From assembly GCF_053078305.1 (NCBI RefSeq), contig NZ_CP166879.1: a stretch of 64,000 nt of DNA. The stretch is one strand, 5' to 3'. The notes below the pieces were generated by a model. The model was not told the DNA's origin and searched no databases. It was given only the letters and a program-made list of their open reading frames with translations. A program made the position numbers and the translations under genes. Below, in pieces: positions 18,460 to 51,737 of the stretch (position 1 is its first letter; every line of letters begins with the position of its first letter).

Positions 18460-18789
18460 ATGTCAAAACCCCGATGGACCATTGAACAGAAAAGGCAGCA
18501 CGTTGCTGCCTGGCGCGCCAGTGGTCTTACACGTCAGCAATACTGTGAACTCAACGATATTCCCTTCACATCACTTCGCGAATGGCCGCAGGATGTCGCA
18601 AAAGCTGAACGCCGGGCAAATGAACCGACCGTTCTTCCCGTTCATATTGCGCCACCACTGCATGCTGATGTACCACAGCCCGTCACGAATGAGCCAGTCA
18701 CGCTCTTCCTTCCCGGCGGAGTACGGATGTGCTGTCAGCCGTCACAACTTACCGATGTCTTCAGGGCGCTCAAATATGCTCAGTCCTGA
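18460..18789 (+). CDS. IS66-family element B, OrfA-like (HTH), 109 aa
   Basis: Small HTH-like ORF immediately upstream of an IS66 TnpB-like ORF in the typical overlapping arrangement. Confidence 0.5.
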   Translation: MSKPRWTIEQKRQHVAAWRASGLTRQQYCELNDIPFTSLREWPQDVAKAERRANEPTVLPVHIAPPLHADVPQPVTNEPVTLFLPGGVRMCCQPSQLTDVFRALKYAQS

Positions 18790-19168
18790 TAATGTCTTCA
18801 TCGCGATTAAACCTGTTGACATGCGCCGGGGCATCGACACACTGACGCAGTATATACAGGATGAACTCCGGTCGACATGGCATGAGGGAGCCGCCTTCGT
18901 CTTTGTTAACAAAGTCCGTTCGCGTATCAAAGTTCTCCGGTGGGATAAACACGGGGTGTGGTTGTGTACCCGCCGTCTGCACAAAGGCAGCTTCCGCTGG
19001 CCACGTGCAAATGATGCTGCCTGGCACCTCACTCCCGACGAGTTTAACTGGCTGATTGCCGGTGTTGACTGGCAGCAGGTTAAGGGACATGACCTGACGA
19101 AATGGGGCTGGCAGAATGAACCTGAACTGCGCCCTGAAAACACGCAAAATACACTGCTAACTCAGTGA
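18776..19168 (+). CDS. IS66-family element B, OrfB (TnpB-like), about 130 aa
   Basis: MLSPDNVFIAIKPVDMRRGIDTL... typical IS66 OrfB; ATG overlaps the orfA stop (ATGCTCAGTCCTGA). The 228-aa ORF in the track is an upstream extension of this frame. Confidence 0.65.
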   Translation: MLSPDNVFIAIKPVDMRRGIDTLTQYIQDELRSTWHEGAAFVFVNKVRSRIKVLRWDKHGVWLCTRRLHKGSFRWPRANDAAWHLTPDEFNWLIAGVDWQQVKGHDLTKWGWQNEPELRPENTQNTLLTQ

Positions 19169-19295
19169 AAAATAATGAATATCCGTATCCGGAGTGGTAT
19201 ACTCCCCTGTATGGATATCTCCGCTCTCAACACCACGAATGACATCGAAAAACTGCGTGCTATGGGTAAGCGTCAACGGAGCACCGTATTGACGC

Positions 19296-20909
19296 TTATT
19301 TATTGGTGAGTACTACGTTCCATGGCAGGAGTTCATCAACTCGGTTGGAAGGCCATTCTGGCAGTACGCTCAGGATATGGCGCAGATACGCTTCCGGATC
19401 GATACCGTTCAGACGGCAGGTGCCGATCAGCCCGTACAACAGTGCTCCACGCTCGCCGCCGTGATCGCTGCCAAAGAACATAAAGTTTTTCTTTCCGAGA
19501 CAGACTGCACGAAGCGCTCTTTCCGCAGCATTATTATCCGCCTCCGCCAGACCGTCATCACTGTAATAACAGAGGGCATCCCACTGATTCAGTACATAGC
19601 TGAACGCTTCGCCCAGTCTGGATTTTTTCGACAGCGTACCATTCTTCTCCACCATCCATTCATGCAGTGACGTCAGTAACACTTTGCTTCGCTGCTGCCT
19701 GACGGCAAGACGCTCTGACTCCGGTAATCCCCGTATTTCATCCTCGATGGCGTACAGTTCACTGATTCGCTTCAGGGCTTCTTCTGCCGTCGCACTTTTG
19801 CTGCTGATGTATACATCGTGGATTTTTCGCCGGGCATGGGCCCAGCACGCAACTTCTGTCAGTGCACCACCTTCACGTTCTGCACTGAACAGCCGATCGT
19901 AACCGCTGAACGCATCCGCCTGCAGGATACCCCGGAAGGGACGAAGGTGTTGTACCGGATGTTTTCCCTGCCTGTCTGGTGAGTAGGCGAACCAGACCGC
20001 CGGTGGCTCTGATGAGCCCGCATTCCGGTCATCCCGGACATACGTCCAGATGCGTCCTGTTTTTGCCTTTTTTCTGCCCGCTGCCAGCACTTTTACTGGT
20101 GTGTCGTCAGTGTGAACCTTGCGGGTGTTCATCACGTAACGGTACAGGGTATCATTCAGCAGAGTCATTAACTGACAACATGCGTCAACCCAGTTGGAGA
20201 GTAATGCCCGGCTCAGTTCGATGCCCTGGCGGGCAAAGATTTCACTCTGACGATACAGTGGCAGGTGTTCGCAGTATTTTCCCGTTAACACGCGGGCAAG
20301 TAATCCGGAGCCCGCGATGCCGCGCTCTATCGGGCGGGACGGCGCTGGCGCTTCAACTATACAGTCACATTTTGTACAGGCTTTTTTTACCCGAACAGTG
20401 CGGATCACTTTCAGGGCGCTACTCACCAGTTCCAGCTGCTCAGCACTGACTTCCCCCAGATAATCCAGCTCACTGCCACACTCCGGGCAACAACTTTCTT
20501 CAGGCTCCAGACGGTGTATTTCACGGGGAAGATGTGCCGGTAACGGACGACGATGACGTGACTGTCGCAACTGGCGGGGAACCTGCGGGTCATCCTCACG
20601 CCCACTGTAACGATCGCTTTCCTGTTCGCGTTGTTTCAGTTGGGCCTCAGCCTGTTCAACCTCACGCTGCAGTTTTTCAGAACGGGTACCGAACAACATC
20701 CGGCGCAGTTTTTCTATCTGGGCCCTCAGATGTTCTATTTCCCGCTCCTCCTCTTCGATCTTTTCCTCGGCACGTGCCAGTGCAGAGCGCAGGAAGGCCT
20801 CCGTCTCTTCAACCAGACTCAGTTGCTGATCTTTCTGACGGAGGGCTTCAGCCTGCTCAGAGAGCAGCCTTTCCAGCTCAGTGATACGAATGAGGTATTT
20901 CCGACTCAT
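19296..20909 (-). CDS. IS66-family transposase OrfC, 537 aa (element A)
   Basis: Coiled-coil N-terminus, CxxC zinc-finger region, DDE-type core typical of IS66 TnpC. Confidence 0.8.
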   Translation of the reverse strand: MSRKYLIRITELERLLSEQAEALRQKDQQLSLVEETEAFLRSALARAEEKIEEEEREIEHLRAQIEKLRRMLFGTRSEKLQREVEQAEAQLKQREQESDRYSGREDDPQVPRQLRQSRHRRPLPAHLPREIHRLEPEESCCPECGSELDYLGEVSAEQLELVSSALKVIRTVRVKKACTKCDCIVEAPAPSRPIERGIAGSGLLARVLTGKYCEHLPLYRQSEIFARQGIELSRALLSNWVDACCQLMTLLNDTLYRYVMNTRKVHTDDTPVKVLAAGRKKAKTGRIWTYVRDDRNAGSSEPPAVWFAYSPDRQGKHPVQHLRPFRGILQADAFSGYDRLFSAEREGGALTEVACWAHARRKIHDVYISSKSATAEEALKRISELYAIEDEIRGLPESERLAVRQQRSKVLLTSLHEWMVEKNGTLSKKSRLGEAFSYVLNQWDALCYYSDDGLAEADNNAAERALRAVCLGKKNFMFFGSDHGGERGALLYGLIGTCRLNGIDPEAYLRHILSVLPEWPSNRVDELLPWNVVLTNK

Positions 20910-20939
20910 GACCGTTTTTATAATCCGGCCATGACATTT

Positions 20940-21290
20940 TTACAACATTGTCAGTGCATTAAGGCGGGATGTTTTGGGCTGACGCCAGTCCAGTTTATCG
21001 AGGAGCATTGCCAGCTGCGAGCGGGTAATGGATACCTTACCGTCACGCACCGCAGGCCAGATAAACTGGCCTTCCTCCAGACGTTTGGTGAACAGGCACA
21101 GACCATCAGCATCAGCCCACAGAATTTTAATCGTGTCACCCCGTCGGCCGCGAAAGATAAACAGGTGACCGGAGAAGGGGTTCTCATCCAGCACATGTTG
21201 TACCTGTTCTCCCAGACCGTTGAAGGATTTACGCATATCAGTAACGCCGGCAACCAGCCAGATTCGAGTGCCTGATGGGAGCGAGATCAT
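20940..21290 (-). CDS. IS66 OrfB (TnpB), 116 aa (element A)
   Basis: MISLPSGTRIWLVAGVTDMRKSFNGL... characteristic IS66 OrfB. Confidence 0.8.
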   Translation of the reverse strand: MISLPSGTRIWLVAGVTDMRKSFNGLGEQVQHVLDENPFSGHLFIFRGRRGDTIKILWADADGLCLFTKRLEEGQFIWPAVRDGKVSITRSQLAMLLDKLDWRQPKTSRLNALTML

Positions 21291-21712
21291 CGTCCCCTCC
21301 CGGTCAGTTCACGGATCAACACCGTGAGCAGCTCTGGTGAAGGATTTTCCAGCGTCATGTTACCGTGGCGGAACTCAACTTTACAGGAACTGGCACTGAC
21401 TGTGCTTTGTGAAGGAGTGGATAAAAGCGGAGTAAGAGCCGCCACAGGCTCTTTCTGCTCATCAGGCGTTATCTCAACAGGTAATAATTCAACGCCAGCG
21501 CCAGAAGAGGTTGTTACCGGAAGACGCCGCGATATACGCCCTTCGTTCTGCCAGAGCCTGAGCCATTTGAACAGGAGGTTATCATTGATATCGTGTTCCC
21601 GGGCAATACGGGCAACAGAGGCTCCTGGTTGTGAAGCCAGTTTAACCATTTGAAGTTTAAACTCATTTGAAAATGATCTGCGGGGTTCTGAGGATAATAT
21701 TTTCTGTTCCAT
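21287..21712 (-). CDS. IS66 OrfA, 141 aa (element A)
   Basis: HTH-containing OrfA (NEFKLQMVKL...); overlaps orfB by 4 bp. Confidence 0.75.
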   Translation of the reverse strand: MEQKILSSEPRRSFSNEFKLQMVKLASQPGASVARIAREHDINDNLLFKWLRLWQNEGRISRRLPVTTSSGAGVELLPVEITPDEQKEPVAALTPLLSTPSQSTVSASSCKVEFRHGNMTLENPSPELLTVLIRELTGRGR

Positions 21713-21802
21713 AACAGGTGTCCACTAGTTGAAAAGGTGGGCACCTACGTTACCAATACTGGCTTAATGGCTACATACGGCGGTCAGTTTACGCTTACTG
21801 CT

Positions 21803-23320
21803 ATGGCACTTACCATGGTACAAAAAGTCATGTCGGAGAATGCCGAAAAAGAGCGGGAATTACTGGAGAAAAGCCGGCGCATCCAGCTTCTGGAAGAAAT
21901 GCTGAAACTGGTTCGTCAACAGCGCTTCGGTAAAAAATGTGAAACGCTGGCTGGTATGCAACGCTCCCTGTTCGAAGAGGATGTTGATGTCGATATCGCC
22001 GCGCTTACCGCACATCTGGATAAACTGCTCCCGCAATCCCCTGAAGAAGACGAAAAAGCGTCCCGTTCACGCCCGATACGCAAACCCTTACCGGCTCATC
22101 TTCCACGGGTGGAAAAAATTATCCAGCCGGACACTGACCATTGCCCTGAATGTGACGAGCCGCTGCACTATATCCGTGATGCGGTGAGTGAAAAGCTGGA
22201 GTATATTCCCGTTCACTTCGTGGTGAACCGTTATGTCCGTCCGCAATACAGTTGTCCCTGTTGCCAGAAGGTGTTCAGCGGTGAAATGCCGGCACATATC
22301 CTCCCGAAAAGTGCCGTTGAGCCATCAGTCATCGCACAGGTGATCATCAATAAATACGGTGACCACCTGCCTCTGTATCGCCAGCAGCACATTTTCTCCC
22401 GAATGGGGGTGGAGCTCCCCGTCAGTACAATGGCGGATAGGGTCGGTGTTGCTGGCGCTGCACTGGCCCCGCTGGCAAAATTGTTACGCCACGAGCTTCT
22501 GACACGGGATGTTATTCATGCCGATGAAACGTCCCTGAGGCTCCCTGATACCCGGAAAGGCGGTAAATCCTGCTCCGGCTGGCTGTGGGCTTACGTCAGC
22601 GGAGAAAGAAGCAGTCCGCCGGTCGTCTGTTTTGACTCGCAGACCGGACGGGCCCTCAGATATCCTGAGGCCTGGCTGCAGGGCTGGTGTGGCGGTACGC
22701 TGGTGAGTGACGGATACAGCGTGTACAAATCTCTGGCGGATAATGACCCCGGTATTACATCTGCCTGTTGCTGGAGCCACGCAAGGCGCGGTTTCGCAAA
22801 TCTGTATAAGGCCAGCAGGGAGCCCCGTGCAGCCATGGCGCTGAGAAAAATCGCGGGTCTTTATCGCATTGAGAAGTTCATCCGTGAACGTCCTGTGGAA
22901 AAAATACGGCAATGGCGACAACGGTATTCCCGGCCGATAGTGAATGACCTGTTTGCCTGGCCTGAAGAGCAGGAGCCGTGCTGTCCGCCCGACGGACCAC
23001 TAAACAAAGCGATTAATTATATCCTGAACCGGCGCGATGAACTGAGCTGCTTCCTGAGTGACGGAGCCGTGCCCCTGGACAACAATATCTGCGAGCGTGC
23101 TATCCGCCCGGTCGTTATGGGACGAAAGGCCTGGTTGTTCGCCGGTTCACTGATGGCCGGAAACCGCGCGGCACAGATAATGAGCCTTCTGGAAACGGCA
23201 AAACGTAATGGTCTGGAGCCACATGCCTGGCTGACAGACGTCCTGGCGCGTCTGCCGGAATGGCCAGAGGAGCGACTGGCAGAGTTGCTGCCTCTTGAGG
23301 GATTTACCTTCTCCGGGTGA
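21803..23320 (+). CDS. IS66-family transposase OrfC (element B), about 505 aa; start codon lies inside the duplicated target of element A
   Basis: IS66 TnpC-like sequence; the track's longer ORF (from 21737) reads through the element A inverted repeat, so the first ATG after the repeat (21803) is preferred. Confidence 0.65.
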   Translation: MALTMVQKVMSENAEKERELLEKSRRIQLLEEMLKLVRQQRFGKKCETLAGMQRSLFEEDVDVDIAALTAHLDKLLPQSPEEDEKASRSRPIRKPLPAHLPRVEKIIQPDTDHCPECDEPLHYIRDAVSEKLEYIPVHFVVNRYVRPQYSCPCCQKVFSGEMPAHILPKSAVEPSVIAQVIINKYGDHLPLYRQQHIFSRMGVELPVSTMADRVGVAGAALAPLAKLLRHELLTRDVIHADETSLRLPDTRKGGKSCSGWLWAYVSGERSSPPVVCFDSQTGRALRYPEAWLQGWCGGTLVSDGYSVYKSLADNDPGITSACCWSHARRGFANLYKASREPRAAMALRKIAGLYRIEKFIRERPVEKIRQWRQRYSRPIVNDLFAWPEEQEPCCPPDGPLNKAINYILNRRDELSCFLSDGAVPLDNNICERAIRPVVMGRKAWLFAGSLMAGNRAAQIMSLLETAKRNGLEPHAWLTDVLARLPEWPEERLAELLPLEGFTFSG

Positions 23321-23921
23321 GTGATACCTGCCGTCAGGTGTTCGTGCACCGGGCCATAACCTGCAGTCGGGAGTTGAACTCCTGACGACAGGAAATGAGC
23401 CAGACCAGCAACCACACGGGCTGACAGCGAATAAGAACCTGAATCAGCCCGGAGTCATTCCCGGGTCAGTACATCATCACCTGCCATTAATCCCCGAGTC
23501 AGTACTTCGCGGCCTGACGCGATCACCCTACTCAGTACTTCAGAGCCCGCCTCCGGTACCTGCCTGGCGATCGCCCCTGTGCAACAAAATAAATCAACCG
23601 TTATCAGACCACGATCGTTCGTATGCGCCGCCGATGACGCGCGCCTGAAAAACGCGTCAATATGAGTTCCCCGGAAGCTTACGGAAAAGTTGAAGATCAT
23701 GCTGTTTATTTTCATCTGTATTGTCACCAGTCAGCATATGCCCCGGTCCCCGATTAGGTTGCGTGTTTTCATGGAAGGAGAGCGCCCAATAACCTCTATT
23801 GAGATTGGAGTTACTCACCGATCACTTCCACAGTAATACGCACATTACCATCATTCCTGATGGCATTGACCAGGAACATAACTACCAATAAAAATTCCCC
23901 AAAGTTGAAGTTACCGTAAGC

Positions 23922-24197
23922 CTATTTTTTATCTTCTTTTCTTTCTTGTAACTTTGCTTTTATCCAAATACCAATCCCTGCTAACATACCAGCCCCTCCC
24001 CCCACCTTTAAAGAATAAATAATATCTGCCCTCCAATCAAAAAATAAAACTTGAGTTTTAGAAAAAACTATCAGTCTACCAAGAATAGTACCTAACATTG
24101 CCATAAAAAAGATGCAAGCTATGCAGCGCATTATTAGTATGATAAGAATGTAAAAGTTGACACTCTTATTTATTTTTAATGGATTTATCAGCTTCAT
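23922..24197 (-). CDS. cdiI: CdiI-like immunity protein (small membrane protein), 91 aa
   Basis: Overlaps the cdiA 3' end by 32 bp; hydrophobic helices; position typical of CDI immunity genes. Function inferred from context. Confidence 0.55.
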   Translation of the reverse strand: MKLINPLKINKSVNFYILIILIMRCIACIFFMAMLGTILGRLIVFSKTQVLFFDWRADIIYSLKVGGGAGMLAGIGIWIKAKLQERKEDKK

Positions 24198-27100
24198 CTA
24201 GTGTTCCTTTTGTTACATTCCCGATAGCTTCACCAGTAATTGTTCCCCCAATATTACCAATAATATCAGATGTTCCCTCTTTGACAGTAGAGCCCATTGA
24301 CCCCGAGATGACTTTCCCTATACCGCCACCAAATACTGAACCTAATCCTGTCCCAATAACTGAATTTGTCGGATCCTCGCCTTTAATACTACTACCAATT
24401 GCCGCGCCGCTCATGTTGATAGGAGTTGAGACGATGATGCCTTTACCGGTTGTAGCTGCAGCTGTCACCCCAGCCATTATCGCATCCACATAACTGAAAG
24501 GACCTTTTCCAGCAAGCTGAGCAGCTGAGTTTACGCTGATACCAATTGCTGCATTAGTCGCCATACCTTTCACTGTTAACCCCAGTACGCTTCCTCCAAA
24601 CAACAAAGGAGCATCACCAATACTTGCATTAGATTTATGATACCCCCAGGTATTCATAATGCTTTGAGCCTTTGCCATTGCTTCAGTATCAGGGTTACGT
24701 TTTATATAGTCCTGTCCTGACAGTAACCCGGTAACAAGCTCCTGTGCCACCGCTGTACCGTACTCCTTTTCCATTTCTGAAGCATATACACGCAAGTAAG
24801 CTGCCAGTTCAGCACGTTCTGCGCTGTTTAATTGTGAAGGATCTTTATTAAATTTGGATACCAGAGCATCACTACGTTTATCTGCATTTTCCAGCTTAAT
24901 CAGCTCATTAGCAGTGGCTAATGTCTTATCGCCGTTCCTGATTTTCTCAATGGCTTTATCCAGTTTGTCAGAAGATGTCGCTCCCAGAAAGTTATTCTCA
25001 ACAGTCGTCTTACCTGACTGTGCGCCGGCTACCGCTGAAGCCCCCGAGTTGCCCACCAGACCACCGGCCAGGCCGGCAGCAACCGTTGCCAGTGTCGAGA
25101 CCGTCTGCTTCTCTGTCTCGCTCAGTTCACTCACCGGCTTACCGTACATCTGTGTGGCTATCATTCCCACCACCTCGCCGGTGGCAGCCCCTGCGGCACC
25201 GGCAAGGGCATTATTTCCCTGTGCCACCGCCAGCGCGGCATTCACAACCGCATGGGCGGCCACACGCCCCGCACCGTCCGGGGTGTTATTTTTGATTATT
25301 TCTGCAATGTACGGCGCAGCACCACCTGCCAGGGCTGCACTCAGATTACCACCGGCCAGTCCCTGTACCGCTGCCGTTGCAGCCTGTATCGCCTGCTGGT
25401 ATTTGCCTCCCGTTCCAAAACCGGAGGCTGCCATACCGTTATTGTAGGCCCGCTGTGCCACATCCTGTTCCGTGAACGGTTTTCCTGCTGCCTCAAGCTC
25501 CGCACGGGCCTGATTCAGTGCTGCCGGGTCCCGCTTCGCTTTCTCACCGGCTATCTGTCCTTCCGTTCTGGCAATATCTGCCACCTGGTTACCAATCTCA
25601 CCAATGAGTTGCGCCTGCTGCAGTCGCTGCTGCTCTTTTTCCCTGTCAAAGATGGGGGACAGCGTCTGATTTGCATGTGCTGCGTCACGGTTCAGGTCTG
25701 CCACATCCTGTTTCTGGCTCTGCGTATCCCGGATGGTGATATTCCCGGCAGACACTGCCGACTGCGTGGTACTGTCCGCATGGCCTTCATGATTTGCACC
25801 GACCAGCAGATTGTTTGCCATGTTCCCCAGGAAATTTCCAGCAACACTGCCACCGGTACTGAGCCCTGTACTCTGATGTTCCGTTTTAAAGTCGGCCCGG
25901 TTTTCAATGTCACTGAAGCCCAGTGTGCCGGTATCCAGCCTGTTTTTATCTGCCGTTGCCGTGGACGCAATCACCGCACCGTTCAGTTGCGTATGCTGTC
26001 CGGTGGTGACATCAAACCCGCCCCTGCCGGCAAAAATCCCCGTCTGCTCCTGTACACTGTCGTAGTTACTGTGCATTTTATCCCGGCTGAGGTTCACACT
26101 CGCCGAACCGCTCATGGACCCGAAAATGAAGCTGCCTCCGGCGCTGGCATTCTGCTGCTTACTGTCATAACGGTCACTGTCCTGCTCACTGGTCAGTGTC
26201 AGATGACGACCGGCATCCACTTTCACCGTTTCACCGCCAGCCTGCGCGCCGGTAAGCGTGGTGTCCCGCCCGCTGATAATGGTCAGCCGGTTTCCCGCAT
26301 CCACCGTGGTTTCTGTATGGGTGGTACCGTTGCCTTTTTCACTGCCCTTACCCTGGTTTGCGCTGGCTGAAACACTGATACCCCAGCCTCCGGAGCCCAC
26401 ACCAACACCGACACCCACGCTGCCACCACTGGATGTGTTCTTTCCTTCCAGCTTTGACGTGTTTTCTGCTGATACCAGATTCACGTCACGGTTTGCCTGC
26501 AGCAGAACGTTGTTCCCGGCCTTTATCTGACTGCCCTGTATCGTCAGGTCACCATCCACGCCCTTCACGCCGGAGCCGGTGGCCTGAATACTGAGGTTAT
26601 TACCTGCGGTCAGTGTACTGCCCTTCGCCACCGTCTGCTCTGACTGCTGTTCTGATTTCGAAGACTGGCTGCCGTAAGAGAGGCTGATGCCCACCGTGTT
26701 ATTATTTCCGGCATCGGCTCCCTGCGCGTCTGCCAGTCGTCCGGCCTGCACGGCCTGAGCCCCCGAGAGCGCGGCCTTCACCCCCTGCAGGGCTTCAAGC
26801 CGGCTGTTTCCGGCAGATTTCGCCGCCTGTACGGTCTCCACCGTCGTATTCAGGGCGCTGCCCGCTGTGCCGGACAGGGCAAGCGTCAGACCGGAGGTTT
26901 TCTGCTCCACCGTATGTGTCTGTACATGCTGGTCTGTGGCGGCGGTAATGCTGACCTCCTTACCGCTGAGTGCCATGTCCCTGCCGGCAATCAGGTCAGA
27001 GCCGTTGACGGTCAACCGGTTACCTGCCTGAAGGGAAACATCACCGTGAACACTCCCCACCGTGCTGCCTTTCTGTGTGGTGTCTGTTGCGGTGTCCGTG

Positions 27101-30100
27101 ACTTTCAGACTCTGGCTGCCCATGCTGAATCCCACACCTCCGGAGCTCATCAGCCCAGATTTTTTCTCCTGTTTCAGGTGTGTTTCACGGTTGCTTTCTG
27201 TCAGCGTGCCGATACTCAGGTCATTTCCGGCAGCCAGGGAGACACGGTTATCCCCGGCCACACTGCTGCCCGTGACGTTCAGATTATGTCCGGCACTGAT
27301 ACTGACCGTATCCCCGTTCAGTTCACTGCCCGTCATGGTCCGGCGGTCAGTGACATCATGCGTGGTTGTGGTGGTTTTCGATAACATCCCGCTGCTGCCG
27401 GTCACTTTATGGTATTCATCCAGCGAGCGGGTATTCTGTGCACCGGTCAGCGTCACGTCATGACCTGCCATCAGGGCCAGGCCTTTCTGAGCTGACAGCG
27501 ATGCCGCCTGTGACGTCATATCCCGTCCGGCGGTCAGCGTGACATCACCGTTACCGGCAAGCGTGCTGCCCGTACTCTGTGTGACGCCCTGCGACAGACG
27601 ATTATTTTTATCCCAGATAATATTGTCCTGCGCGGAAGTGGTCACAGTGGAAAGCGTCATATCCCTGCCCGCACTGAGTTGCGTCAGGCTGTCCTTACCC
27701 TGATTCACCACCGTTGCAGCCGTCAGATTCATATCCCGTCCGGCCTGCAGCACCAGTCTTCCCTGGTCGTTCTGCACATACACGCCGGCCACACTGTCGA
27801 TACTGGTACGTTCAAAATGGTTCTGTCCGGCGTCGCGCTGTGCCGTACGGGTGGTGGTGGTCAGACTGATATCCCGTCCGGCCATCGCCAGCAGGCTGTC
27901 CGTGGCCTGCAGCAGCCCGCCGGTACTGTTAATATCCGTCCGGGCCGTCAGGCTGACATTTGCTCCCTGAATGGAGCCGGCCTGGTTGTGAATGTTTTCT
28001 GCACTGAGCTGCACGGTCTGCTTCCCGGCCAGTTTACCGCTGTTAAACAGGTCACCATCCAGCTTCATCACCATGTCCCTGCCGGCAATCAGCGCACCGG
28101 CGCTGTTCACATCACCGGGTTTTACACGGGCATACACCTGAGGTACCTGAACCGTCTGCGTGCTGCCGTCCGGCAGTGTCACCGTGGTGTTAACCAGCCA
28201 GACAATATCACCGGTCAGTAACGCCATCTGCTCAGCAGTCAGCGCCACACCTGGTGTCAGGTTGTATTGCTTACCAAATGCAATACCCGCATCCATTAAC
28301 GCCTTAAACTGCTCTTCATCATTACTGTATCCGTCCAGGTACCGTTGCCCGGTCAGAGCGACAACCTGCTCACGAATCAGACGCTGTTCGTAAAAACCAT
28401 CCCCCAGGCGTTTGAGCATGTTATCCCCGTTCTGAGAAAACGCCTTCTGCATGTAATCACTGCCCAGCCACGTCTTCTGGTTCGTAAAACGCGGGTCCGT
28501 TTCAACCAGATATGGCACATTCACTGCCGGGTTTGTTTTAAACAGGCTGCTGTCCGGCAGACGGGTATCCGGCCCGGCAACATGGATACTGCCCTGAGGT
28601 GCGCTGACTTCAAACTGCTGCCCCGGCAACAGAATGACCGGTTCACCGGCAGACACCACCGGGCGAAGCGGTATCCGGTCAGTAGCGGCTACTGCCGCAT
28701 CCACATTTCCGGCCTGTCCTGTCTGTACATCCGTTCCCTGTGGCTTCAGAGGAGAAAGCGTGACCTGGCTGCCCTGAATCTGTCCGTGGCTGGTGAGCTC
28801 TCCCGGCTTCAGCGTAATGCTCTGAATTACAGTGGGCGGAGTGTACTGAGAGGTTTTCTCCCCCTGCTTATCCTTTCCTTTTTTCCTGATACGGTAATAA
28901 TACGTGGATGTTCCTGAGTCCGTAACATGCCGCTCGCCACTGACACTGACATTTTCCACGCTTCCTGACGGAATGGTCAGCAGGCCGCCTGCAACAACCT
29001 GACTCTTATCATTAAGCAGTTTGTCTGCCACAATCGTCATGCCGGCACCGGACAGAATTTTTCCCGGGTCGGAGTCTTTTACCCGGGTTTCTTCCACGGT
29101 ACGGGTGTAATCATACTGCGTGAATTTATCTCTGGCGCCTTCCGGTGTATGCAGTTTTTTCAGTGAGTTACTGGAATCGTTATCCACATAAACGCCCGGT
29201 TCACCGGCGCTCCAGCGTTTATCTGAGCCGCTGAGCTGATACTCAGTCACCTTTTCCGTGGAAACCACCACGCGCTCCGTGGTGAAATGGTCATTGACGT
29301 TATTGATTTGTCCGGCACTCAGTACCAGATATCCGGCGGCTTCAATAGTGGCACTGTGATTATTCAGTACACCGGCTTTCCCCGTGGCGGCACCATTCGC
29401 ATCCAGCATGCCACCAGTATGCATATCACCTGCACTGTAAATCAGGCTGTGCGTCCGGTTATTCAGGGTCTGTACCCCTAAGTCCACACGCTCACGCCCG
29501 GCCAGCGTCGCCGCCACGCCATTTTCTTCCAGATTATTAAATGTGGCAGCGCTGACACCAACAGCATCGCCGTAGATTCGCCCGGTACCGGAATTCGTCA
29601 GGGTGTTCGCCTGAAGATGCGTATATTTCCCGTCAATCAGCCCACGGTTCAGCAGTGTGTCCGTCACGTTAAGCCAGGTCTGCCCGGCACTGATTTCACC
29701 TTTCTCTGTGTTTTCAAGGCGGATGCTGTTCAGGTCAAGCCGGCTGCCTGCCAGCAGGCTGCCGGTATTAGAGACATCGCCATTAACGGAAAGCGTAAGG
29801 TTTCCGTTCGCAATAGTCTGACCACTGTTGCTGAACGTTGTGTTACTTTTCAGCGTCATATCGCCCAGCGAAAGCAGTTTCCCGTCACCACCGAGCTGAC
29901 CGGCATCCACAGATACTGACTGCCCGGCCTTAACCACGCCGTCACGGTTCGAAAACGCCAGCTGACGGCCACTGACAGACAATGTCGCGCCGGAAGAGAG
30001 GACGCCGTCATTATTACTGAGCGTCCTGTCTGCCATAACCGTAAGCGCCCTGTCTGCCAGAATACTGCCCTCCTGGTTATCAAGGTCCTGCGTCGTGATG

Positions 30101-33100
30101 TGTATTGTCTGCGCTTCCAGCCCCTGACCGGTATTCTGCGTGTGGCGATTGATAAACTGCAGGGCGTTCAGCGTAATGGCGGAACCACTGCGAATCAGAC
30201 CAGAGACGTTGTCCACAACGCCCCGTACACTGTTGAGCAACATGTCGCCCACAGACTGTATTTGTCCGTGGCTGTTCTGCAGACCTCCCGTATGCAGACG
30301 GAGTTCACCTTCACTGACCAGCCGGCCCCCCTCACGGTTATCCAGCGAGGTGGTGCTCAGGTCAGCTGTCGTTTTCGCCCCCACGGTCCCGCCCCGGTTA
30401 TCCATTGCTCCGGTACTGACAGTCAGTTCCTGCAGGCTGTTCAGCGTACCGCGTCTGTTATCCAGCGTCTGGCCTGCGGTATTAATGCTGATACCCCTCC
30501 CCTGAATAAGACCGGACTGATTGTTCAGCGCCTGGCTGTTCCAGCCGAGCAGACCGTTTGCCACCATCTGACCGGATGTATTGTTAACCACGCCTGCAGT
30601 CAGGGACAGAGCATCTCCCGACAAAAGCACACCGGCAGTGCTGTCCAGTGTGCCGGCATTCAGCGTCATCGGACCCTGACTGATAACCCCGCCCCGGTCA
30701 CCACTATTACGGTTACTCAGTGTGTCAGCACGGAGATTCAGCGATGCACCGCTCTGTATCAGGCCGCCGGCATCGTTGATGATATCCGTCGAGGAAAGTG
30801 TCAGTGACTGCTGTGCCACCAGTCTGCCGCCCTGATTATCAAACCGTGTGACATCCAGCCTGCTGTTACCGTTGCTGACCACCGTCCCCTGCTGATTTTC
30901 CAGCACACTCAGGTGCGTATTCAGGTCCCCGCCGGCGGCAAGCGCCCCTTCCTGATTACTGACATCACCACCACTCAGCAACATATCCGTCCCGGCCTTC
31001 AGTGCGCCTTTCTGGTTCATCAGCGTACCTGACGATATCTGTAATGACGTCTGACTCCCCAGCACGCCCTGACGGTTATCGAGCGTTCCGGCGTTCAGGG
31101 TCATATCCTTCTGACCCGCCATAAATCCCTGCTGGTTATTCAGCATACCGGCCCGCACTGTCAGGGTACCGGCGCTGCTGATACCACCCCGTGTTTTCGT
31201 GTTCCGGTTACTGAGTACCCCGTCCTGTACATCCAGCGTCATGTCACTGCCGGACTGAATCAGACCATCATCAGAGACCAGTTCGCTGCCTGACACAGAC
31301 AGCGTTTTCTGTGAAAGCAGTCTGCCGGACGTATTATCCAGCGCACCATCCAGCGTCACAGACAGCCCGTCAGCCACCACCGTACCCTGGTGGTTATTCA
31401 GATTCCCTGCCGAAATATCCAGCCTGCCGGCGGACTCCATTCGTCCCTCAGTATTGCTGACAGCCTGCTGTGTTTTTATCCTGCCCGTTCCGGCAGCAGC
31501 TGAAATCAGTCCGTTGTCGTTATTCAGCGCCTGTGTATTAATCAGGATGTCACGGCTGGCAAGCAGACGTCCCTGCTGGTTATCCACGGCGCCGGTTGTC
31601 CTCACCTGCAGACTGCCTGACTGCGCCGCCTGCACTTTCCCCCTGCGATTATCAAGGCTCAGTGCATCCAGACGCACCGCGCCATTTGCCGCAAACAGCC
31701 CTTCCCGGTTATCCACGCTTCCCGGCAGACTCAGCGAAAAATCCCCTGTTCCCGTCTGAGTCAGACTGCCTTTACGATTTGACAGGCTTTGTGCCGATAT
31801 CTGCAGTGTGTCGGCATTTATCGTGCCACCATTATTGCTGAAGTGCCCGACAGTCCGGGCGGAAAGCGTACCGGCACTCAGTTGCGCATTCTGTGTGGAC
31901 AGATTTCCACTGGTTGCATCCAGCTCAGTATGTTGTCCCTGTATCCGGCTGTTGCTTAAATCCAGCCCCTGCCCCTTCAGTTGCATGTCCCCACCGGACA
32001 GAACCTGTCCGTGTGCCGCCAGTTCGCCGGTGGTACTGACAGTCAGGTTGCCCGCTGCCGCCAGACGTCCGTCATCTTTCACCCCGGCGGCCAGCAGACT
32101 CCGCTCACCGCCGGTCAGACGCGCTGTCTGAATCCGGGTGTTGCGACGTGATGCCACAGAGCCTGTATGGGTGAAGACACCATCACTCTGTATCTGCGTA
32201 TCCTGCCCCGCATAAACAGAACCACTGTTATGCAGCTCCCGGGTTGTCGCCAGATGCACATCCGTTTTCGCACTGATACTGCCACTGTTTTCAATACGTC
32301 CGTCAGCCGTCAGGGTAACCGCCCCTGCCTGTGCACCAATATGACCGGCGTTACGAACACCCACCCCCGTTTCCGTACCGACAAGGCGAATTTTTCCGGC
32401 ATACATTCCGCCAAGACTGGCCACATCCAGTGCCATCTGAGGCTGTGAAGAGACATCACCGGTCTTTTTCTCAATCTGCCCGTGCGCGATATCCACATTG
32501 TTACGTCCTGTGGTCACTTTCAGATCCTGCGCCCAGATACCCGCATTAATCTTCACAGACCGGGCAATGATATCGGTATAATCCGTGCGCGAGGCATCCA
32601 TCCCTTTGCCCGTAACCTGAATCTCACCACGTTCAACACTGAATCCGGTCAGACTGCCGTTTTTCATCTGCGGCTGCCCCGTGGTCAGCGTGGCCCGGTT
32701 CGCATTAATAAAACCGCACCCGTCGCAACTGATGCCGGCCGGGTTCGCAATCACCACCTGCGCCTTTTTACCGGCAACCTCAACAAAACCGTTCAACTGG
32801 CTGGGATTGCGACTGTTCACTTCATTAAGAATGATTCTGGCCTCTCCCTTAGCCAGCCACGGGTTCCCGGCCACCATGCCACCCAGTTGAGTCTGCACAT
32901 TGTTATGGGCATTATTCAGAATGACGCCCTGGTTACCGACGTCGAACTGGCTGTATGCGTTATGTGAAACCCCGCCGGCAGAAGGCGTCTGAATATTCAC
33001 CTGCGGAATGCCGCTGGCCGTCTGCGTAATCGTGGGCTGCTGATACCCTGGTGCGCCATGGTCTGCGACAATGCCTGCAGCACTGACAGAATGCACCATC

Positions 33101-33279
33101 CCCGAAGCCAGCCACAAAGAGAATGCAAGCGGCGTGACACGGCAGATACGTTGCCTGTGTGGATATCCTGTGCGGGAGGACAGTGATGTACCGGCGCGAC
33201 CGGAACGGGCAATATCTGCCACCACCATCAGCATTCCCCGGGCTTTGTTAAAAATAATGCGGTAACAATTTCTGTTCAT
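24166..33279 (-). CDS. cdiA: CdiA contact-dependent inhibition exoprotein (TpsA/filamentous haemagglutinin family), 3037 aa, with VENN-delimited C-terminal toxin
   Basis: Extended signal peptide (YRIIFNKARG...VVADIARSG), TPS secretion domain (NPAGISCDGCGFINANRATLTTG), long haemagglutinin-type repeats, VENN motif 274 aa before the C-terminus. Confidence 0.85.
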   Translation of the reverse strand: MNRNCYRIIFNKARGMLMVVADIARSGRAGTSLSSRTGYPHRQRICRVTPLAFSLWLASGMVHSVSAAGIVADHGAPGYQQPTITQTASGIPQVNIQTPSAGGVSHNAYSQFDVGNQGVILNNAHNNVQTQLGGMVAGNPWLAKGEARIILNEVNSRNPSQLNGFVEVAGKKAQVVIANPAGISCDGCGFINANRATLTTGQPQMKNGSLTGFSVERGEIQVTGKGMDASRTDYTDIIARSVKINAGIWAQDLKVTTGRNNVDIAHGQIEKKTGDVSSQPQMALDVASLGGMYAGKIRLVGTETGVGVRNAGHIGAQAGAVTLTADGRIENSGSISAKTDVHLATTRELHNSGSVYAGQDTQIQSDGVFTHTGSVASRRNTRIQTARLTGGERSLLAAGVKDDGRLAAAGNLTVSTTGELAAHGQVLSGGDMQLKGQGLDLSNSRIQGQHTELDATSGNLSTQNAQLSAGTLSARTVGHFSNNGGTINADTLQISAQSLSNRKGSLTQTGTGDFSLSLPGSVDNREGLFAANGAVRLDALSLDNRRGKVQAAQSGSLQVRTTGAVDNQQGRLLASRDILINTQALNNDNGLISAAAGTGRIKTQQAVSNTEGRMESAGRLDISAGNLNNHQGTVVADGLSVTLDGALDNTSGRLLSQKTLSVSGSELVSDDGLIQSGSDMTLDVQDGVLSNRNTKTRGGISSAGTLTVRAGMLNNQQGFMAGQKDMTLNAGTLDNRQGVLGSQTSLQISSGTLMNQKGALKAGTDMLLSGGDVSNQEGALAAGGDLNTHLSVLENQQGTVVSNGNSRLDVTRFDNQGGRLVAQQSLTLSSTDIINDAGGLIQSGASLNLRADTLSNRNSGDRGGVISQGPMTLNAGTLDSTAGVLLSGDALSLTAGVVNNTSGQMVANGLLGWNSQALNNQSGLIQGRGISINTAGQTLDNRRGTLNSLQELTVSTGAMDNRGGTVGAKTTADLSTTSLDNREGGRLVSEGELRLHTGGLQNSHGQIQSVGDMLLNSVRGVVDNVSGLIRSGSAITLNALQFINRHTQNTGQGLEAQTIHITTQDLDNQEGSILADRALTVMADRTLSNNDGVLSSGATLSVSGRQLAFSNRDGVVKAGQSVSVDAGQLGGDGKLLSLGDMTLKSNTTFSNSGQTIANGNLTLSVNGDVSNTGSLLAGSRLDLNSIRLENTEKGEISAGQTWLNVTDTLLNRGLIDGKYTHLQANTLTNSGTGRIYGDAVGVSAATFNNLEENGVAATLAGRERVDLGVQTLNNRTHSLIYSAGDMHTGGMLDANGAATGKAGVLNNHSATIEAAGYLVLSAGQINNVNDHFTTERVVVSTEKVTEYQLSGSDKRWSAGEPGVYVDNDSSNSLKKLHTPEGARDKFTQYDYTRTVEETRVKDSDPGKILSGAGMTIVADKLLNDKSQVVAGGLLTIPSGSVENVSVSGERHVTDSGTSTYYYRIRKKGKDKQGEKTSQYTPPTVIQSITLKPGELTSHGQIQGSQVTLSPLKPQGTDVQTGQAGNVDAAVAATDRIPLRPVVSAGEPVILLPGQQFEVSAPQGSIHVAGPDTRLPDSSLFKTNPAVNVPYLVETDPRFTNQKTWLGSDYMQKAFSQNGDNMLKRLGDGFYEQRLIREQVVALTGQRYLDGYSNDEEQFKALMDAGIAFGKQYNLTPGVALTAEQMALLTGDIVWLVNTTVTLPDGSTQTVQVPQVYARVKPGDVNSAGALIAGRDMVMKLDGDLFNSGKLAGKQTVQLSAENIHNQAGSIQGANVSLTARTDINSTGGLLQATDSLLAMAGRDISLTTTTRTAQRDAGQNHFERTSIDSVAGVYVQNDQGRLVLQAGRDMNLTAATVVNQGKDSLTQLSAGRDMTLSTVTTSAQDNIIWDKNNRLSQGVTQSTGSTLAGNGDVTLTAGRDMTSQAASLSAQKGLALMAGHDVTLTGAQNTRSLDEYHKVTGSSGMLSKTTTTTHDVTDRRTMTGSELNGDTVSISAGHNLNVTGSSVAGDNRVSLAAGNDLSIGTLTESNRETHLKQEKKSGLMSSGGVGFSMGSQSLKVTDTATDTTQKGSTVGSVHGDVSLQAGNRLTVNGSDLIAGRDMALSGKEVSITAATDQHVQTHTVEQKTSGLTLALSGTAGSALNTTVETVQAAKSAGNSRLEALQGVKAALSGAQAVQAGRLADAQGADAGNNNTVGISLSYGSQSSKSEQQSEQTVAKGSTLTAGNNLSIQATGSGVKGVDGDLTIQGSQIKAGNNVLLQANRDVNLVSAENTSKLEGKNTSSGGSVGVGVGVGSGGWGISVSASANQGKGSEKGNGTTHTETTVDAGNRLTIISGRDTTLTGAQAGGETVKVDAGRHLTLTSEQDSDRYDSKQQNASAGGSFIFGSMSGSASVNLSRDKMHSNYDSVQEQTGIFAGRGGFDVTTGQHTQLNGAVIASTATADKNRLDTGTLGFSDIENRADFKTEHQSTGLSTGGSVAGNFLGNMANNLLVGANHEGHADSTTQSAVSAGNITIRDTQSQKQDVADLNRDAAHANQTLSPIFDREKEQQRLQQAQLIGEIGNQVADIARTEGQIAGEKAKRDPAALNQARAELEAAGKPFTEQDVAQRAYNNGMAASGFGTGGKYQQAIQAATAAVQGLAGGNLSAALAGGAAPYIAEIIKNNTPDGAGRVAAHAVVNAALAVAQGNNALAGAAGAATGEVVGMIATQMYGKPVSELSETEKQTVSTLATVAAGLAGGLVGNSGASAVAGAQSGKTTVENNFLGATSSDKLDKAIEKIRNGDKTLATANELIKLENADKRSDALVSKFNKDPSQLNSAERAELAAYLRVYASEMEKEYGTAVAQELVTGLLSGQDYIKRNPDTEAMAKAQSIMNTWGYHKSNASIGDAPLLFGGSVLGLTVKGMATNAAIGISVNSAAQLAGKGPFSYVDAIMAGVTAAATTGKGIIVSTPINMSGAAIGSSIKGEDPTNSVIGTGLGSVFGGGIGKVISGSMGSTVKEGTSDIIGNIGGTITGEAIGNVTKGTLDEADKSIKNK

Positions 33280-33294
33280 TCTGATAAACCTGAC

Positions 33295-33822
33295 TTATCT
33301 CTCCGGCACATCCACAGCAAGCGGGTGCTGCACACGCCACTGGCGCGCCTCTTCACGACTGACCTGTGCACCCCGGAAATTCATCACCCGTAACCCGGTC
33401 TGCTGCCCACGGTGGTACAGCGAACGCCAGCACAGACGGGGAAAAATATCCTGCCGGACAAGACGACTCATATCCGGAGTGTGTCCAAAAGGGGCAACCC
33501 AGTCACAGACCCACATCCGGTCGCCGCTGTTCCAGTCCGACTGAGGCATGAGAATTGCCGGCTGCGTAAGATAACGCGCCTCTGCCTCCGGGCTGAGCCA
33601 GGCCTGGCTCATGAAGAAAACCGGTCGCCCCTGCTCTGTTGCCACCACATACTGTCGGTGCTTAATCACCGGCAGCAGCAGGTCCGGCAGGGTATGCAGT
33701 GGCGCATCACGATGCAGGGGGGAGTGCATCCACAACCAGACGGCCGCCCCCAGGACTTCCGCCTCATTGACCGGCTCACCGGAATACAGGGGACTCAGAA
33801 CGTCATATTTCCCGTTACGCAT
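33295..33822 (-). CDS. cdiC: HlyC-family toxin-activating lysine acyltransferase (CdiC-like), 175 aa
   Basis: HlyC-like blocks WLWMHSPLHRDAP and SGDRMWVCDWVAPFG; sits between cdiB and cdiA. Confidence 0.7.
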   Translation of the reverse strand: MRNGKYDVLSPLYSGEPVNEAEVLGAAVWLWMHSPLHRDAPLHTLPDLLLPVIKHRQYVVATEQGRPVFFMSQAWLSPEAEARYLTQPAILMPQSDWNSGDRMWVCDWVAPFGHTPDMSRLVRQDIFPRLCWRSLYHRGQQTGLRVMNFRGAQVSREEARQWRVQHPLAVDVPER

Positions 33823-43968: not shown

Positions 43969-44541
43969 ATGCAAAAACTTGAAAACCGGTGTGATCTGCT
44001 GCTAATTCAGCATCAGAAATGGATGGCAAGTGTAACCCGGTTTATTGTCGCTCATGGAATGGGCTCTCCGCATCTTCATGGTTATCACCGCCTGACCCTG
44101 GCTCACTTTTTTCTACCGGAAAAAGGCACCATCATCTCAGTGGCACCACAGGGACTCTATCAGGTCGTCAACCCGGGAACGCCACCGTTCATTCCTGCCA
44201 TTCAGGAAGGGTTAATGACCAGCATTCAGACCCATGAAATCATGCTGCTTACGCATTTTAATCTGGGCGGCGTTTTACTCAGTGAGCTACATCGTCTGGG
44301 CGAAAGCCGGCTGGCAAACAGGCTGAACAGTCTGCTCCGGCGTTTCGAAGATCGCGATCTCTACCACACGCTGATATGGCTGTGCTGGTATGATCTGATG
44401 TGTGCCCACTCCATGCAGCCCTGGACTGAAGAGTTAAAGCATAAATCACACACAGAGCTTGAAAGCTGGGCTGTGGCGCGCAAACGGGAAAAGCGCGAGC
44501 TTGAACTGATGATTGACGAGTATCTGTTATACGCCTGTTGA
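43969..44541 (+). CDS. Hypothetical protein, 190 aa
   Basis: ORF following alpA; no motif recognised. Confidence 0.4.
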   Translation: MQKLENRCDLLLIQHQKWMASVTRFIVAHGMGSPHLHGYHRLTLAHFFLPEKGTIISVAPQGLYQVVNPGTPPFIPAIQEGLMTSIQTHEIMLLTHFNLGGVLLSELHRLGESRLANRLNSLLRRFEDRDLYHTLIWLCWYDLMCAHSMQPWTEELKHKSHTELESWAVARKREKRELELMIDEYLLYAC

Positions 44542-47141: not shown

Positions 47142-47250
47142 TTCATTACCTGTTACATTCTAAATAATCTCAGACAGATATTATCTCCGTGAATCCCCCG
47201 CCACCTTTCCGGTGCGCGGGGTTTTGTCTTTTTTCACCGGGAATACATGT

Positions 47251-48123: not shown

Positions 48124-48241
48124 ACACTCTGCCAGGAAAATGCCTGATTACATTGCGTTAACCAACTGAAAACATGACACAAACACCTCATGCTCCTCCT
48201 GTTTCTCTTGCGTGACCGCCTTGCAATCAATAGAATAAAAC

Positions 48242-48277
48242 GATCGATAAAACAGATATCGATCGTTACTATCGATC
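48242..48277. promoter_or_regulatory. Three closely spaced GATC (Dam) sites in the agn43 upstream region: candidate OxyR/Dam phase-variation switch
   Basis: GATC at 48242, 48261 and 48274 within cgatcgataaaacagatatcgatcgttactatcgatcgtt, about 220 bp upstream of the agn43 ATG. Confidence 0.65.
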
Positions 48278-51617: not shown

Positions 51618-51737
51618 CAGAACCATCGCCTCTCTGTGGTCCCGGTCATCATGATCGGGACCCGGACCGGCGCAACGGATATTCAACGCCACATTCGCTG
51701 GCATTAACAATAACATGATATTCATCACGGAGTGACT

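Follow-up and report, generated by a model that had tools for sequence, protein, structure and literature searches.

What kind of toxin ends the CdiA protein encoded in this stretch of DNA, and does the small open reading frame (ORF) that overlaps the end of cdiA protect against it? The window analyzed here is 64,000 nucleotides of contig NZ_CP166879.1 (assembly GCF_053078305.1). An earlier note, made from the letters alone, had proposed that the C-terminal region (CT) after the VENN motif resembles a membrane-inserting ionophore or pore-former more than a nuclease, and that the 91-aa ORF downstream is its membrane-localized immunity protein. Our analysis leads to the same answer with a more specific identity. 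We put the probability at roughly 90% that the region is the toxin-immunity end of an intact E. coli class IV cdiBCAI operon, with a two-domain CT that is a group 2 ionophore of the CTo10(EC869) type.

The 3037-aa product contains ESPR, TPS, Fil_haemagg, Fil_haemagg_2 and PT-VENN (Pfam), and the presence of PT-VENN, TPS, ESPR and FHA repeats identifies it as CdiA. VENN occurs once, at CdiA residues 2760–2763 inside PT-VENN (2716–2766), and the 274 residues that follow it lie exactly where the earlier note had placed them. At the VENN boundary the GC content falls from 56.8% to ~43%. The cdiB ORF matches ShlB (1.8e-109) along with POTRA_2 and POTRA_3, and the ORF between cdiB and cdiA matches HlyC at 6.3e-32 (all Pfam). 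Class IV CDI loci are distinguished by an additional cdiC cistron, encoding an HlyC/TAAT-family acyltransferase, between cdiB and cdiA (PMC8510554); by the position of cdiC and its HlyC match, this locus classifies as class IV cdiBCAI. The receptor-binding domain of this class carries an acylated lysine (Lys1467 in STEC4) and binds LPS core, and the presence of cdiC suggests that the window CdiA may do the same. The exact 3037-aa sequence had no match in the protein collection searched; CdiA genes of equal length occupy the same locus in other assemblies. A plasmid origin was considered and rejected: plasmid matches are confined to the body of cdiA, and the sequence on either side corresponds to a chromosomal island of E. 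coli (Ag43 region).

Table 1. Features of the cdi locus and its 3′ flank (positions are those of the window).
Feature	Position	Strand	Description
cdiB	33832..35571	(-)	579-aa ORF, TTG start; outer-membrane CdiA transporter
cdiC	33295..33822	(-)	HlyC-family lysyl acyltransferase; between cdiB and cdiA
cdiA	24166..33279	(-)	3037 aa plus stop codon; full-length CDI effector
VENN codons	24991..25002	(-)	Border of conserved CdiA body and variable CT
CT, 274 aa	24990..24169	(-)	Directly C-terminal to VENN
CT residues 1–118	24637..24990	(-)	Charged, alpha-helical cytoplasm-entry domain, predicted group 2 SecY-dependent type; boundary approximate
CT residues 119–274	24169..24636	(-)	Gly-rich, predicted ionophore domain, ~156 residues
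Gly zipper G213-x3-G217-x3-G221-x3-G225, GTGLGSVFGGGIG	24316..24354	(-)	
Second GxxxG run, G245-G249-G253-G257	24220..24258	(-)	Variable C-terminal helix region
cdiI	23922..24197	(-)	91 aa; predicted two-helix inner-membrane immunity protein, CdiI-o10 type
Non-coding stretch 3′ of cdiI	23684..23921	(-)	Travels with the module; common to O157:H7 orphan locus
IS66-family element, 3′ part	21737..23683	(+)	tnpC (21737..23320) and terminal region; truncates the CDI locus

The CT had been described as rich in Gly, Ala, Ser, Ile and Val with few charged residues. This holds for residues 131–274, where Gly makes up 20.1%, the five residues together 60.4% and charged residues 13.2%, but not for residues 1–130, which contain 5.4% Gly and 27.7% charged residues. 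Taken whole, the 274-residue CT is somewhat richer in the five residues than the CdiA body (48.5% versus 43.2%), and its content of Asp, Glu, Lys and Arg is also higher (20.1% versus 16.7%). The N-terminal ~118 residues are a separate entry domain, outside the pore-forming region. Domain-wise homologue matches support such a bipartite modularity. In other proteins, residues 1–95 of the query precede deaminase, CdiA_C or TreTu_C toxin domains, and residues ~125–265 also recur, after different entry domains, in proteins of the CdiA type and in one RHS protein.

Within the Gly-rich domain, residues 213–225 and 245–257 form GxxxGxxxG runs. The columns of the first run (G213, G217, G221 and G225) are conserved across 14 distant ionophore domains, and a Gly zipper is the sole sequence element common to the whole CDI ionophore family (PMC11630599). 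The Pfam model 'Glycine zipper 2TM' gives a weak, sub-threshold match over CT residues 195–227. The second GxxxG region varies between immunity types, as seen against the E. coli ETEC1716 allele and in the homologue alignment.

The assignment of the pair comes from its match to a module of E. coli O157:H7. Including VENN, the CT is identical to an orphan copy in O157:H7 FRIK944 at 274 of 278 positions (98.6%), and CdiI at 89 of 91 (97.8%). The FRIK944 orphan, which lies directly upstream of the NCBI-annotated cdiA-o11, served as a stand-in for o10 of EC869, a substitution based on exact primer identity and on its position beside o11. The published primers for EC869 cdiI-o10 match the window at 24165–24197, the first 33 nt of the ORF, and at 23922–23934, its stop region, with one mismatch each. 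The CT differs from the O157 copy by four substitutions (G/D, M/I, T/S and A/V), none of them within residues 1–118, and CdiI by two, E/D among them. The window module also shares with o10 (EC869) the lengths of 274 and 91 aa and the 32-nt toxin/immunity overlap, and at the DNA level the match to the O157:H7 orphan begins exactly at VENN. Thus, by sequence, the pair is of the CdiA-CTo10/CdiIo10(EC869) type. The two settings differ. The window module is an in-frame part of a full-length class IV CdiA, whereas in O157:H7 the module is a promoterless orphan after another cdiA; there, a DUF2569 gene and o11 follow the module, and here an IS66-family element takes their place.

The function of o10 has been established experimentally. 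Approximately 97% of target cells exposed to the o10 toxin became DiBAC4(3)-positive, i.e. depolarized, while a tRNase control caused no depolarization (Jones et al. 2021, PMC7858069). CdiI-o10, which has two predicted transmembrane helices, protects against the toxin, as does the secY(S281F) mutation in target cells, and genetic evidence indicates that o10 requires SecY, PpiD and YfgM (PMC7858069). Later work showed that all six of six ionophore groups depolarize their targets and that each is blocked by its cognate CdiI (Halvorsen et al. 2024, PMC11630599). The o10 family was named there 'CDI ionophore toxins, group 2, SecY-dependent', with an architecture of two alpha-helical domains, an N-terminal entry domain followed by a C-terminal five-helix bundle in an AlphaFold model (PMC11630599). 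Given its near-identity to o10, the window CT probably depolarizes target cells and its cognate CdiI probably protects against it, and an entry domain identical to that of the o10 copy argues that the window CT would also use SecY, PpiD and YfgM. The proposal of an ionophore or pore-former is supported by this near-identity to a depolarizing toxin, and by the listing of the window CdiI among the group 2 immunity proteins (S1 Table of PMC11630599), where the exact sequence appears as GCK03127.1 from E. coli 16-B15-A.

The 91-aa ORF has the features of a genuine gene. It overlaps the 3′ end of cdiA by 32 nt, and an AGGA lies 7 nt ahead of its ATG. Its product reaches a maximal 19-residue Kyte-Doolittle mean of 2.6 near residue 25 and has a second, Gly-rich hydrophobic segment at ~59–79. 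CdiI is conserved at 58–96% identity in ~45 clusters from Erwinia, Pantoea, Edwardsiella, Raoultella, Tatumella and Brenneria, and this conservation across genera therefore marks a real gene rather than a chance ORF. Cognate CdiI proteins of the ionophore family are very hydrophobic proteins of 72–100 aa that form a two-helix membrane hairpin (PMC11630599); the window CdiI likewise is small and hydrophobic and has two helices, judging from its sequence and an AlphaFold2 (AF2) model. Together with the identity to CdiI-o10, these results agree with the small hydrophobic membrane protein anticipated by the earlier note. The DUF2569 gene that follows the module in O157:H7 was considered as the true immunity gene and rejected: the window has no DUF2569 gene, and the ORF delimited by the published cdiI-o10 primers is precisely the 91-aa one.

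Structure prediction resolved parts of the pair. AF2 of the CT (33-sequence alignment) gave a helical entry domain of moderate confidence; over this run and the next its pLDDT was 60–82. A second run used a CT-(GGGGS)6-CdiI fusion and an alignment of 39 rows, five of which paired CT and CdiI. In this run CdiI formed two long helices (residues ~10–47 and ~54–89, pLDDT 56–76). In the fusion run both the entry domain and the CdiI hairpin came out better, but most of the ionophore domain stayed at pLDDT ~20–35 in both runs and no interface between toxin and immunity protein was readable.

In searches of Pfam, NCBIfam and PDB profiles, neither the CT nor CdiI matched anything above threshold; a match of CdiI to Cornichon was judged spurious. 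Specifically, no nuclease or tRNase domain was detected in the CT in Pfam (E≤1), NCBIfam (E≤0.01) or a PDB profile search (E≤1), the families considered being EndoU, Ntox28, colicin D/E5-like, CdiA_C, EC869-like DNase and others. A match of this kind is what the earlier note had set against its own proposal. A colicin pore-forming domain, a ten-helix bundle, was absent from the Pfam matches of the CT (E≤1), which also has no PDB sequence relative, and the CT did not match Ntox25 (PF15530) in Pfam.

The toxin can be compared with other membrane-active systems. CdiA-CT(EC93), the founding CDI ionophore (group 1), has in common with it a Gly-zipper domain, depolarization and a small two-helix CdiI, but is only ~30% identical to o10, has another entry domain and uses AcrB rather than SecY as its receptor (PMC11630599). 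Pore-forming colicins (A, E1, Ia, N type) are a functional analogy, with inner-membrane depolarization and a small inner-membrane immunity protein; however, colicins insert spontaneously into the bilayer while CDI ionophores depend on a particular protein of the inner membrane as receptor (PMC7858069). The Ntox25 CDI/polymorphic toxins, the other CdiA-CT family that dissipates the pmf, also occur on class IV CdiA (STEC4) and dissipate the proton gradient. From the missing PF15530 match, the window CT and Ntox25 would be different toxin fold families.

From these observations a mechanism can be proposed. As known for the family, CdiA would be exported to the cell surface by CdiB, and contact with a neighboring cell would release the CT into the periplasm of the target. 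At the inner membrane, the receptor of the ~118-residue entry domain would then be the SecY translocon together with PpiD and YfgM, as expected from o10 genetics. Next, the ~156-residue Gly-zipper domain would enter the inner membrane as a helical bundle, with loss of the potential and arrest of growth. Depolarization has been shown for o10; the five-helix bundle is the published AlphaFold model, which the AF2 runs here did not reproduce. Finally, the two-helix hairpin of CdiI would bind the variable ionophore helices within the membrane and so protect the producer and its kin. Protection has been shown for CdiI-o10, and the binding mode follows the published model.

Two other readings concern how the toxin acts. 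If the CT were a nuclease or another cytoplasmic enzyme, its Gly-rich tail would be merely a linker or translocation segment. Most characterized CdiA-CTs are indeed nucleases, and the same entry domain bears enzymatic toxins elsewhere. Yet no catalytic family was found in Pfam, NCBIfam or PDB sequences at permissive thresholds, a soluble enzyme would not be expected with a membrane-embedded immunity protein, and published data already contradict this reading, since the near-identical o10 depolarizes membranes where a tRNase control does not (PMC7858069). We therefore give it almost no credence. It is also conceivable, but improbable, that the toxin has no ion path of its own and instead keeps the SecY channel, its receptor, jammed open and leaking. 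Toxicity is strictly receptor-dependent, in other ionophore groups even with toxin produced inside the cell; secY(S281F), located deep in the channel, blocks depolarization despite toxin delivery (PMC7858069); and bilayer conductance and electrophysiology data are absent from the cited CDI ionophore studies. Against SecY as the conduit, homologous ionophore domains use the unrelated receptors AcrB, YciB, PuuP/PlaP and DtpA/DtpB (PMC11630599), our homologue search places the ionophore domain behind different entry domains, and soluble enzymes, deaminases among them, are found behind the SecY-type entry domain as well. Such domain swapping and varied receptors point to the receptor as an aid to insertion or entry and not as the pore. 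Additionally, in the published model the immunity protein binds the ionophore helices, not SecY (PMC11630599).

Two further readings accept an ionophore and concern this locus itself, and here the 3′ flank matters. Downstream of cdiI the window follows O157 with 0–2 differences per 50 nt as far as ~23684 and is unrelated beyond. The sequence from 23321 to 23682 is repeated, up to 11 times within an E. coli genome, and its matches end at 23682/23683; we set the IS edge by these multi-copy BLAST matches, a repeat search for IS66 terminal inverted repeats having given no clear pair. The product of tnpC matches DDE_Tnp_IS66 (1.4e-88, Pfam), and the gene ends 602 bp from the cdiI ORF, in agreement with the IS66-family transposase gene noted before at about 600 bp. 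As also noted before, no orphan toxin/immunity modules follow cdiI, because the IS66-family element truncated the locus. The pair could be real but non-functional in this strain, part of a silent or decaying remnant cut by IS insertions: the IS66-family elements are nested and start only 238 bp after the cdiI stop, no terminator-like site was found 3′ of cdiI, and related loci have decayed, with cdiA split in L007 and both cdiB and cdiA pseudogenes in ETEC1716. We regard this as unlikely. None of the ORFs of cdiB, cdiC, cdiA (3037 aa) and cdiI is interrupted, their domain sets are complete, no coding sequence is entered by the IS, and at least 22 E. coli contigs retain the identical arrangement. 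Still harder to sustain is the idea that the substitutions relative to o10 create a new immunity specificity and thus a distinct cognate pair. Immunity is narrow in this family, with partial or absent cross-protection reported at ~78% CT identity, and two of the four CT differences fall in the C-terminal region that varies among immunity types. However, at 98.6% (CT) and 97.8% (CdiI) identity the substitutions are few and mostly conservative (M/I, T/S and A/V in the CT; E/D in CdiI), while known distinct pairs have CdiI proteins only ~30–60% identical. An o10-type ionophore with its matching immunity protein, on an intact class IV CdiA, remains the reading that we favor.

This toxin-immunity pair belongs to a known toxin family, for which activity, receptor and immunity were demonstrated by experiment in 2021 and 2024. 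Knowledge of the family is unchanged by the present locus, whose exact immunity protein already stands in the accession table of PMC11630599. The practical value of the identification lies in annotation. Neither the toxin nor CdiI has a model in Pfam or NCBIfam. RefSeq labels the pair 'hypothetical protein' or 'adhesin', and cdiI is sometimes truncated. With models missing and such labels in place, the pair is easily taken for new when it is read without tools. The window provides a clean example of a full-length class IV CdiA, apparently intact, that carries an o10-type module.

A comparison with a sibling allele indicates how this module may have arisen. The full-length CdiA proteins of E. 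coli ETEC1716 and M3 have the same backbone, at ~97% nucleotide identity to the window. Apart from scattered substitutions, their CTs match the window CT throughout the entry domain and ~100 residues into the ionophore domain, but the final ~50 residues have diverged. ETEC1716 CdiI is 78 aa long and 33% identical to the window CdiI, and presumably belongs to a different immunity group. This pattern of divergence fits the published intra-group polymorphism. Upstream of ~24410–24510 the 3′ end of the window cdiA follows the ETEC1716-type allele, and from there to 23684 the window hardly differs from the orphan o10 module of O157:H7. The window therefore looks like a recombinant of an ETEC1716-type backbone and an o10-type 3′ end, with a crossover at ~24410–24510. 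Recombination with orphan modules is, as a general idea, already present in the CDI literature. Here it may have taken the form of a 'resurrection' of an orphan module, in which homologous recombination inside the ionophore domain exchanged only the immunity-determining helices and cdiI; either direction of transfer fits, and we hold this scenario tentatively, at somewhat less than even odds. If it is true, new toxin/immunity specificities could come from sub-domain exchange with silent orphans, beyond whole-CT replacement at VENN.

In the window, a 3037-aa ORF carries ESPR, TPS, FHA-repeat and PT-VENN domains and therefore encodes a CdiA effector. An earlier note had located its VENN motif, the 274-residue toxin region after it (CT) and an overlapping 91-aa ORF (cdiI). 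When re-derived from the window, all three lay at the same positions, and these coordinates are therefore exact. An AGGA sequence is found 7 nt upstream of the cdiI ATG. Class IV CDI loci are defined by cdiC between cdiB and cdiA, and their CdiA proteins bind LPS core and are lipidated by CdiC (PMC8510554). The position of cdiC marks the window locus as class IV, so that its CdiA would be lipidated and would have LPS core as its receptor. At least 22 contigs, drawn from several E. coli assemblies, show the gene order cdiB-cdiC-cdiA(3037 aa)-cdiI(91 aa)-IS66-NERD/kinase/helicase. GC content is 56.8% in the cdiA body but only ~43% in the CT and 31.5% in the small ORF, a drop that is usual for exchangeable CT/immunity cassettes.

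Features of the CDI locus and the adjoining IS66-family elements
Feature	Coordinates	Strand	Description
cdiB	33832..35571	-	ShlB/POTRA transporter gene, upstream of cdiA
cdiC	33295..33822	-	HlyC-family (RTX-toxin-activating) acyltransferase, between cdiB and cdiA
cdiA	24166..33279	-	3037-aa ORF
VENN motif	25002..24991	-	CdiA residues 2760-2763; single occurrence
CT	24990..24169	-	274 residues after VENN
cdiI	23922..24197	-	91-aa ORF; start 32 nt ahead of cdiA stop codon
Outer IS66-family element	within 18482..23683	+	tnpB-like 18482..19168; tnpC 21737..23320; end 23683
Nested complete second IS66		-	tnpA 21287..21712; tnpB 20940..21290; tnpC 19296..20909; interrupts outer element

The earlier proposal of a membrane-acting toxin paired with a small membrane immunity protein is supported by near-identity to the depolarising CdiA-CTo10/CdiIo10 (o10) module of E. 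coli EC869, for which the orphan copy of O157:H7 FRIK944 served as a proxy. Protein identity to the FRIK944 orphan is 274/278 for the CT and 89/91 for the small ORF, and DNA homology starts exactly at the VENN codons and stops at ~23684. In the DiBAC4(3) assay of Jones et al. (2021, PMC7858069), CdiA-CTo10(EC869) left ~97% of the targets depolarised; CdiI-o10, which has two predicted transmembrane helices, protects against it, and cells with secY(S281F) that also lack PpiD or YfgM are resistant. The published EC869 cdiI-o10 primers (S4 Table) match both ends of the 91-aa ORF, each with a single mismatch, at 24165-24197 and 23922-23934; the cloned, protective gene is therefore exactly this ORF from start to stop. 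Additionally, the public database entry GCK03127.1 has exactly this 91-aa sequence, and S1 Table of Halvorsen et al. 2024 (PMC11630599) gives it as the group 2 CdiI of E. coli 16-B15-A. Published work thus already covers the system, including this exact immunity protein.

When 23700-25200 was compared by megablast with 5,426 complete E. coli genomes, hundreds of strains proved to carry the module (typical match, query 1-1304 at 98.2% identity), typically annotated as two 'hypothetical protein' genes. In FRIK944 it lies directly upstream of NCBI-annotated cdiA-o11 and cdiI-o11, with a DUF2569 gene in between. RefSeq annotation of the module is inconsistent: cdiI is 60 aa from an internal Met in FRIK944 (8222..8404 of that locus, L001) and 91 aa in E62, and the CT of o10-type modules is labelled 'hypothetical protein' or 'adhesin'. 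Neither Pfam nor NCBIfam has a model for the CT or for CdiI. Just upstream of o10 in FRIK944, a further orphan module (L001 9305..10097) encodes an 84-aa two-segment hydrophobic protein resembling CdiI-o10; because the fragment before it closes with a Gly-rich tail, this module too is probably of the ionophore type.

A phmmer scan of the CT against 1.84 billion cluster representatives returned 119 matches in three sets, covering the full-length CT, query residues ~1-95 only, or ~125-265 only. Judged from these alignments, the CT is composed of two separable domains, a putative entry domain and a putative ionophore domain. Entry-only proteins run on into other toxin domains (cytidine deaminase, P0223; CdiA_C, P0171; TreTu_C, P0215), and ionophore-only proteins have other linkers and a pre-toxin region of the PT-VENN or DUF637 type. 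One of the latter, the RHS-repeat protein P0213 (2386 aa), has its C-terminal homolog at residues ~2237-2332; the ionophore domain is therefore not confined to CdiA-type effectors. Closer homologs occur in Erwinia, Pantoea, Serratia, Edwardsiella, Yersinia and Dickeya, with the entry domain and first ionophore half conserved and variation concentrated in the last ~60 residues. Cluster relatives of CdiI number ~45 and are 87-101 aa long; they come from the same genera, and several share a contig with a CT homolog.

Published CDI ionophores combine a variable entry domain with a C-terminal five-helix ionophore domain whose conserved Gly zipper is the main element common to them, and their CdiI proteins are 72-100 aa with two helices (PMC11630599). 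In our alignment of 14 distant ionophore domains, the conserved elements are N..Q, D..A, GKG, GA..GS..KG.DP, a late Glu and a Gly zipper, which agrees with the zipper as the main shared element. The CT had been described as rich in Gly/Ala/Ser/Ile/Val with few charged residues. This holds for residues 131-274 (Gly 20.1%, G/A/S/I/V 60.4%, charged 13.2%), where GxxxGxxxG runs occur at 213-225 and 245-257, but not for residues 1-130 (Gly 5.4%, charged 27.7%) or for the whole CT, in which D/E/K/R reach 20.1% versus 16.7% in the CdiA body. No Pfam or NCBIfam model gave an above-threshold match to the CT or CdiI, and no PDB sequence was found with a profile built from 33 CT homologs; the absence of any nuclease or tRNase family match there agrees with the view that the toxin is not a nuclease.

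AlphaFold2 modelled the CT alone as a helical entry domain (pLDDT 60-72) and a Gly-rich domain at pLDDT ~20-35, with no usable model. In a CT-linker-CdiI fusion run with a mixed alignment, the entry domain reached pLDDT 70-82 and the ionophore domain again gave no resolved model; the five-helix bundle and CdiI interface therefore rest on the published models. CdiI formed two long helices (~10-47 and ~54-89, pLDDT 56-76), and a predicted two-helix immunity hairpin is therefore supported.

We consider it about 90% probable that the window pair is a functional-type group 2 (SecY-dependent) CDI ionophore with its cognate CdiI. Class IV CdiA would deliver the CT into the target periplasm, where the entry domain, helped by SecY, PpiD and YfgM, would insert it into the inner membrane; the Gly-zipper domain would then dissipate the membrane potential, and the CdiI hairpin would neutralise the toxin within the membrane. 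For the near-identical o10 pair it was shown that the toxin depolarises target cells, that its CdiI protects and that SecY is needed, and by likeness the same may be expected here; we infer the pore architecture, immunity interface and LPS receptor of the window system. The main mechanistic rival, in which the toxin jams SecY open without conducting ions itself, is improbable, given that unrelated receptors can serve the same ionophore domain.

Downstream of the ionophore pair, sequence shared with the O157 locus gives way at 23684 to an IS66-family element, of which 23321-23682 is a multi-copy repeat. In O157:H7 and E62, the same module is followed by a DUF2569 gene as well as more CdiA-CT orphans. 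The earlier observation that no orphan modules follow cdiI and that IS66 lies nearby was borne out, and the element, which breaks off the shared locus, explains the lack of orphans. The nested IS66 copy is present in one related E. coli contig (L005) and absent from four others (L006-L009). Beyond the elements, 10753..17258 (-) encodes a 1652-aa protein that combines NERD nuclease-related, protein-kinase-like and AAA_11/AAA_12 helicase domains, then a 515-aa protein without a Pfam match; these look like a defence-type gene pair, conserved beside the CDI locus in L005-L009. The flanks of the locus match an Ag43-carrying E. coli island: 44000..52000 shares 99.2% identity with a chromosomal island that also has a GTPase-family gene and IS1 beside the Ag43 autotransporter, which makes the window E. 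coli genomic-island DNA. In the whole 64 kb, ARAGORN detected no tRNA gene.

The 3' end of cdiA is mosaic. In a three-way comparison, sequence upstream of ~24410-24510 resembles the full-length cdiA of E. coli ETEC1716, and from there down to 23684 it resembles the O157 orphan o10 with 0-1 differences per 50 nt. ETEC1716 has a sibling group 2 toxin whose differences are confined to the last ~50 residues, and its CdiI (78 aa) is 33% identical. An apparent breakpoint thus falls within the ionophore domain at ~24410..24510, which suggests that recombination there may have swapped the immunity-determining end of the toxin together with cdiI.
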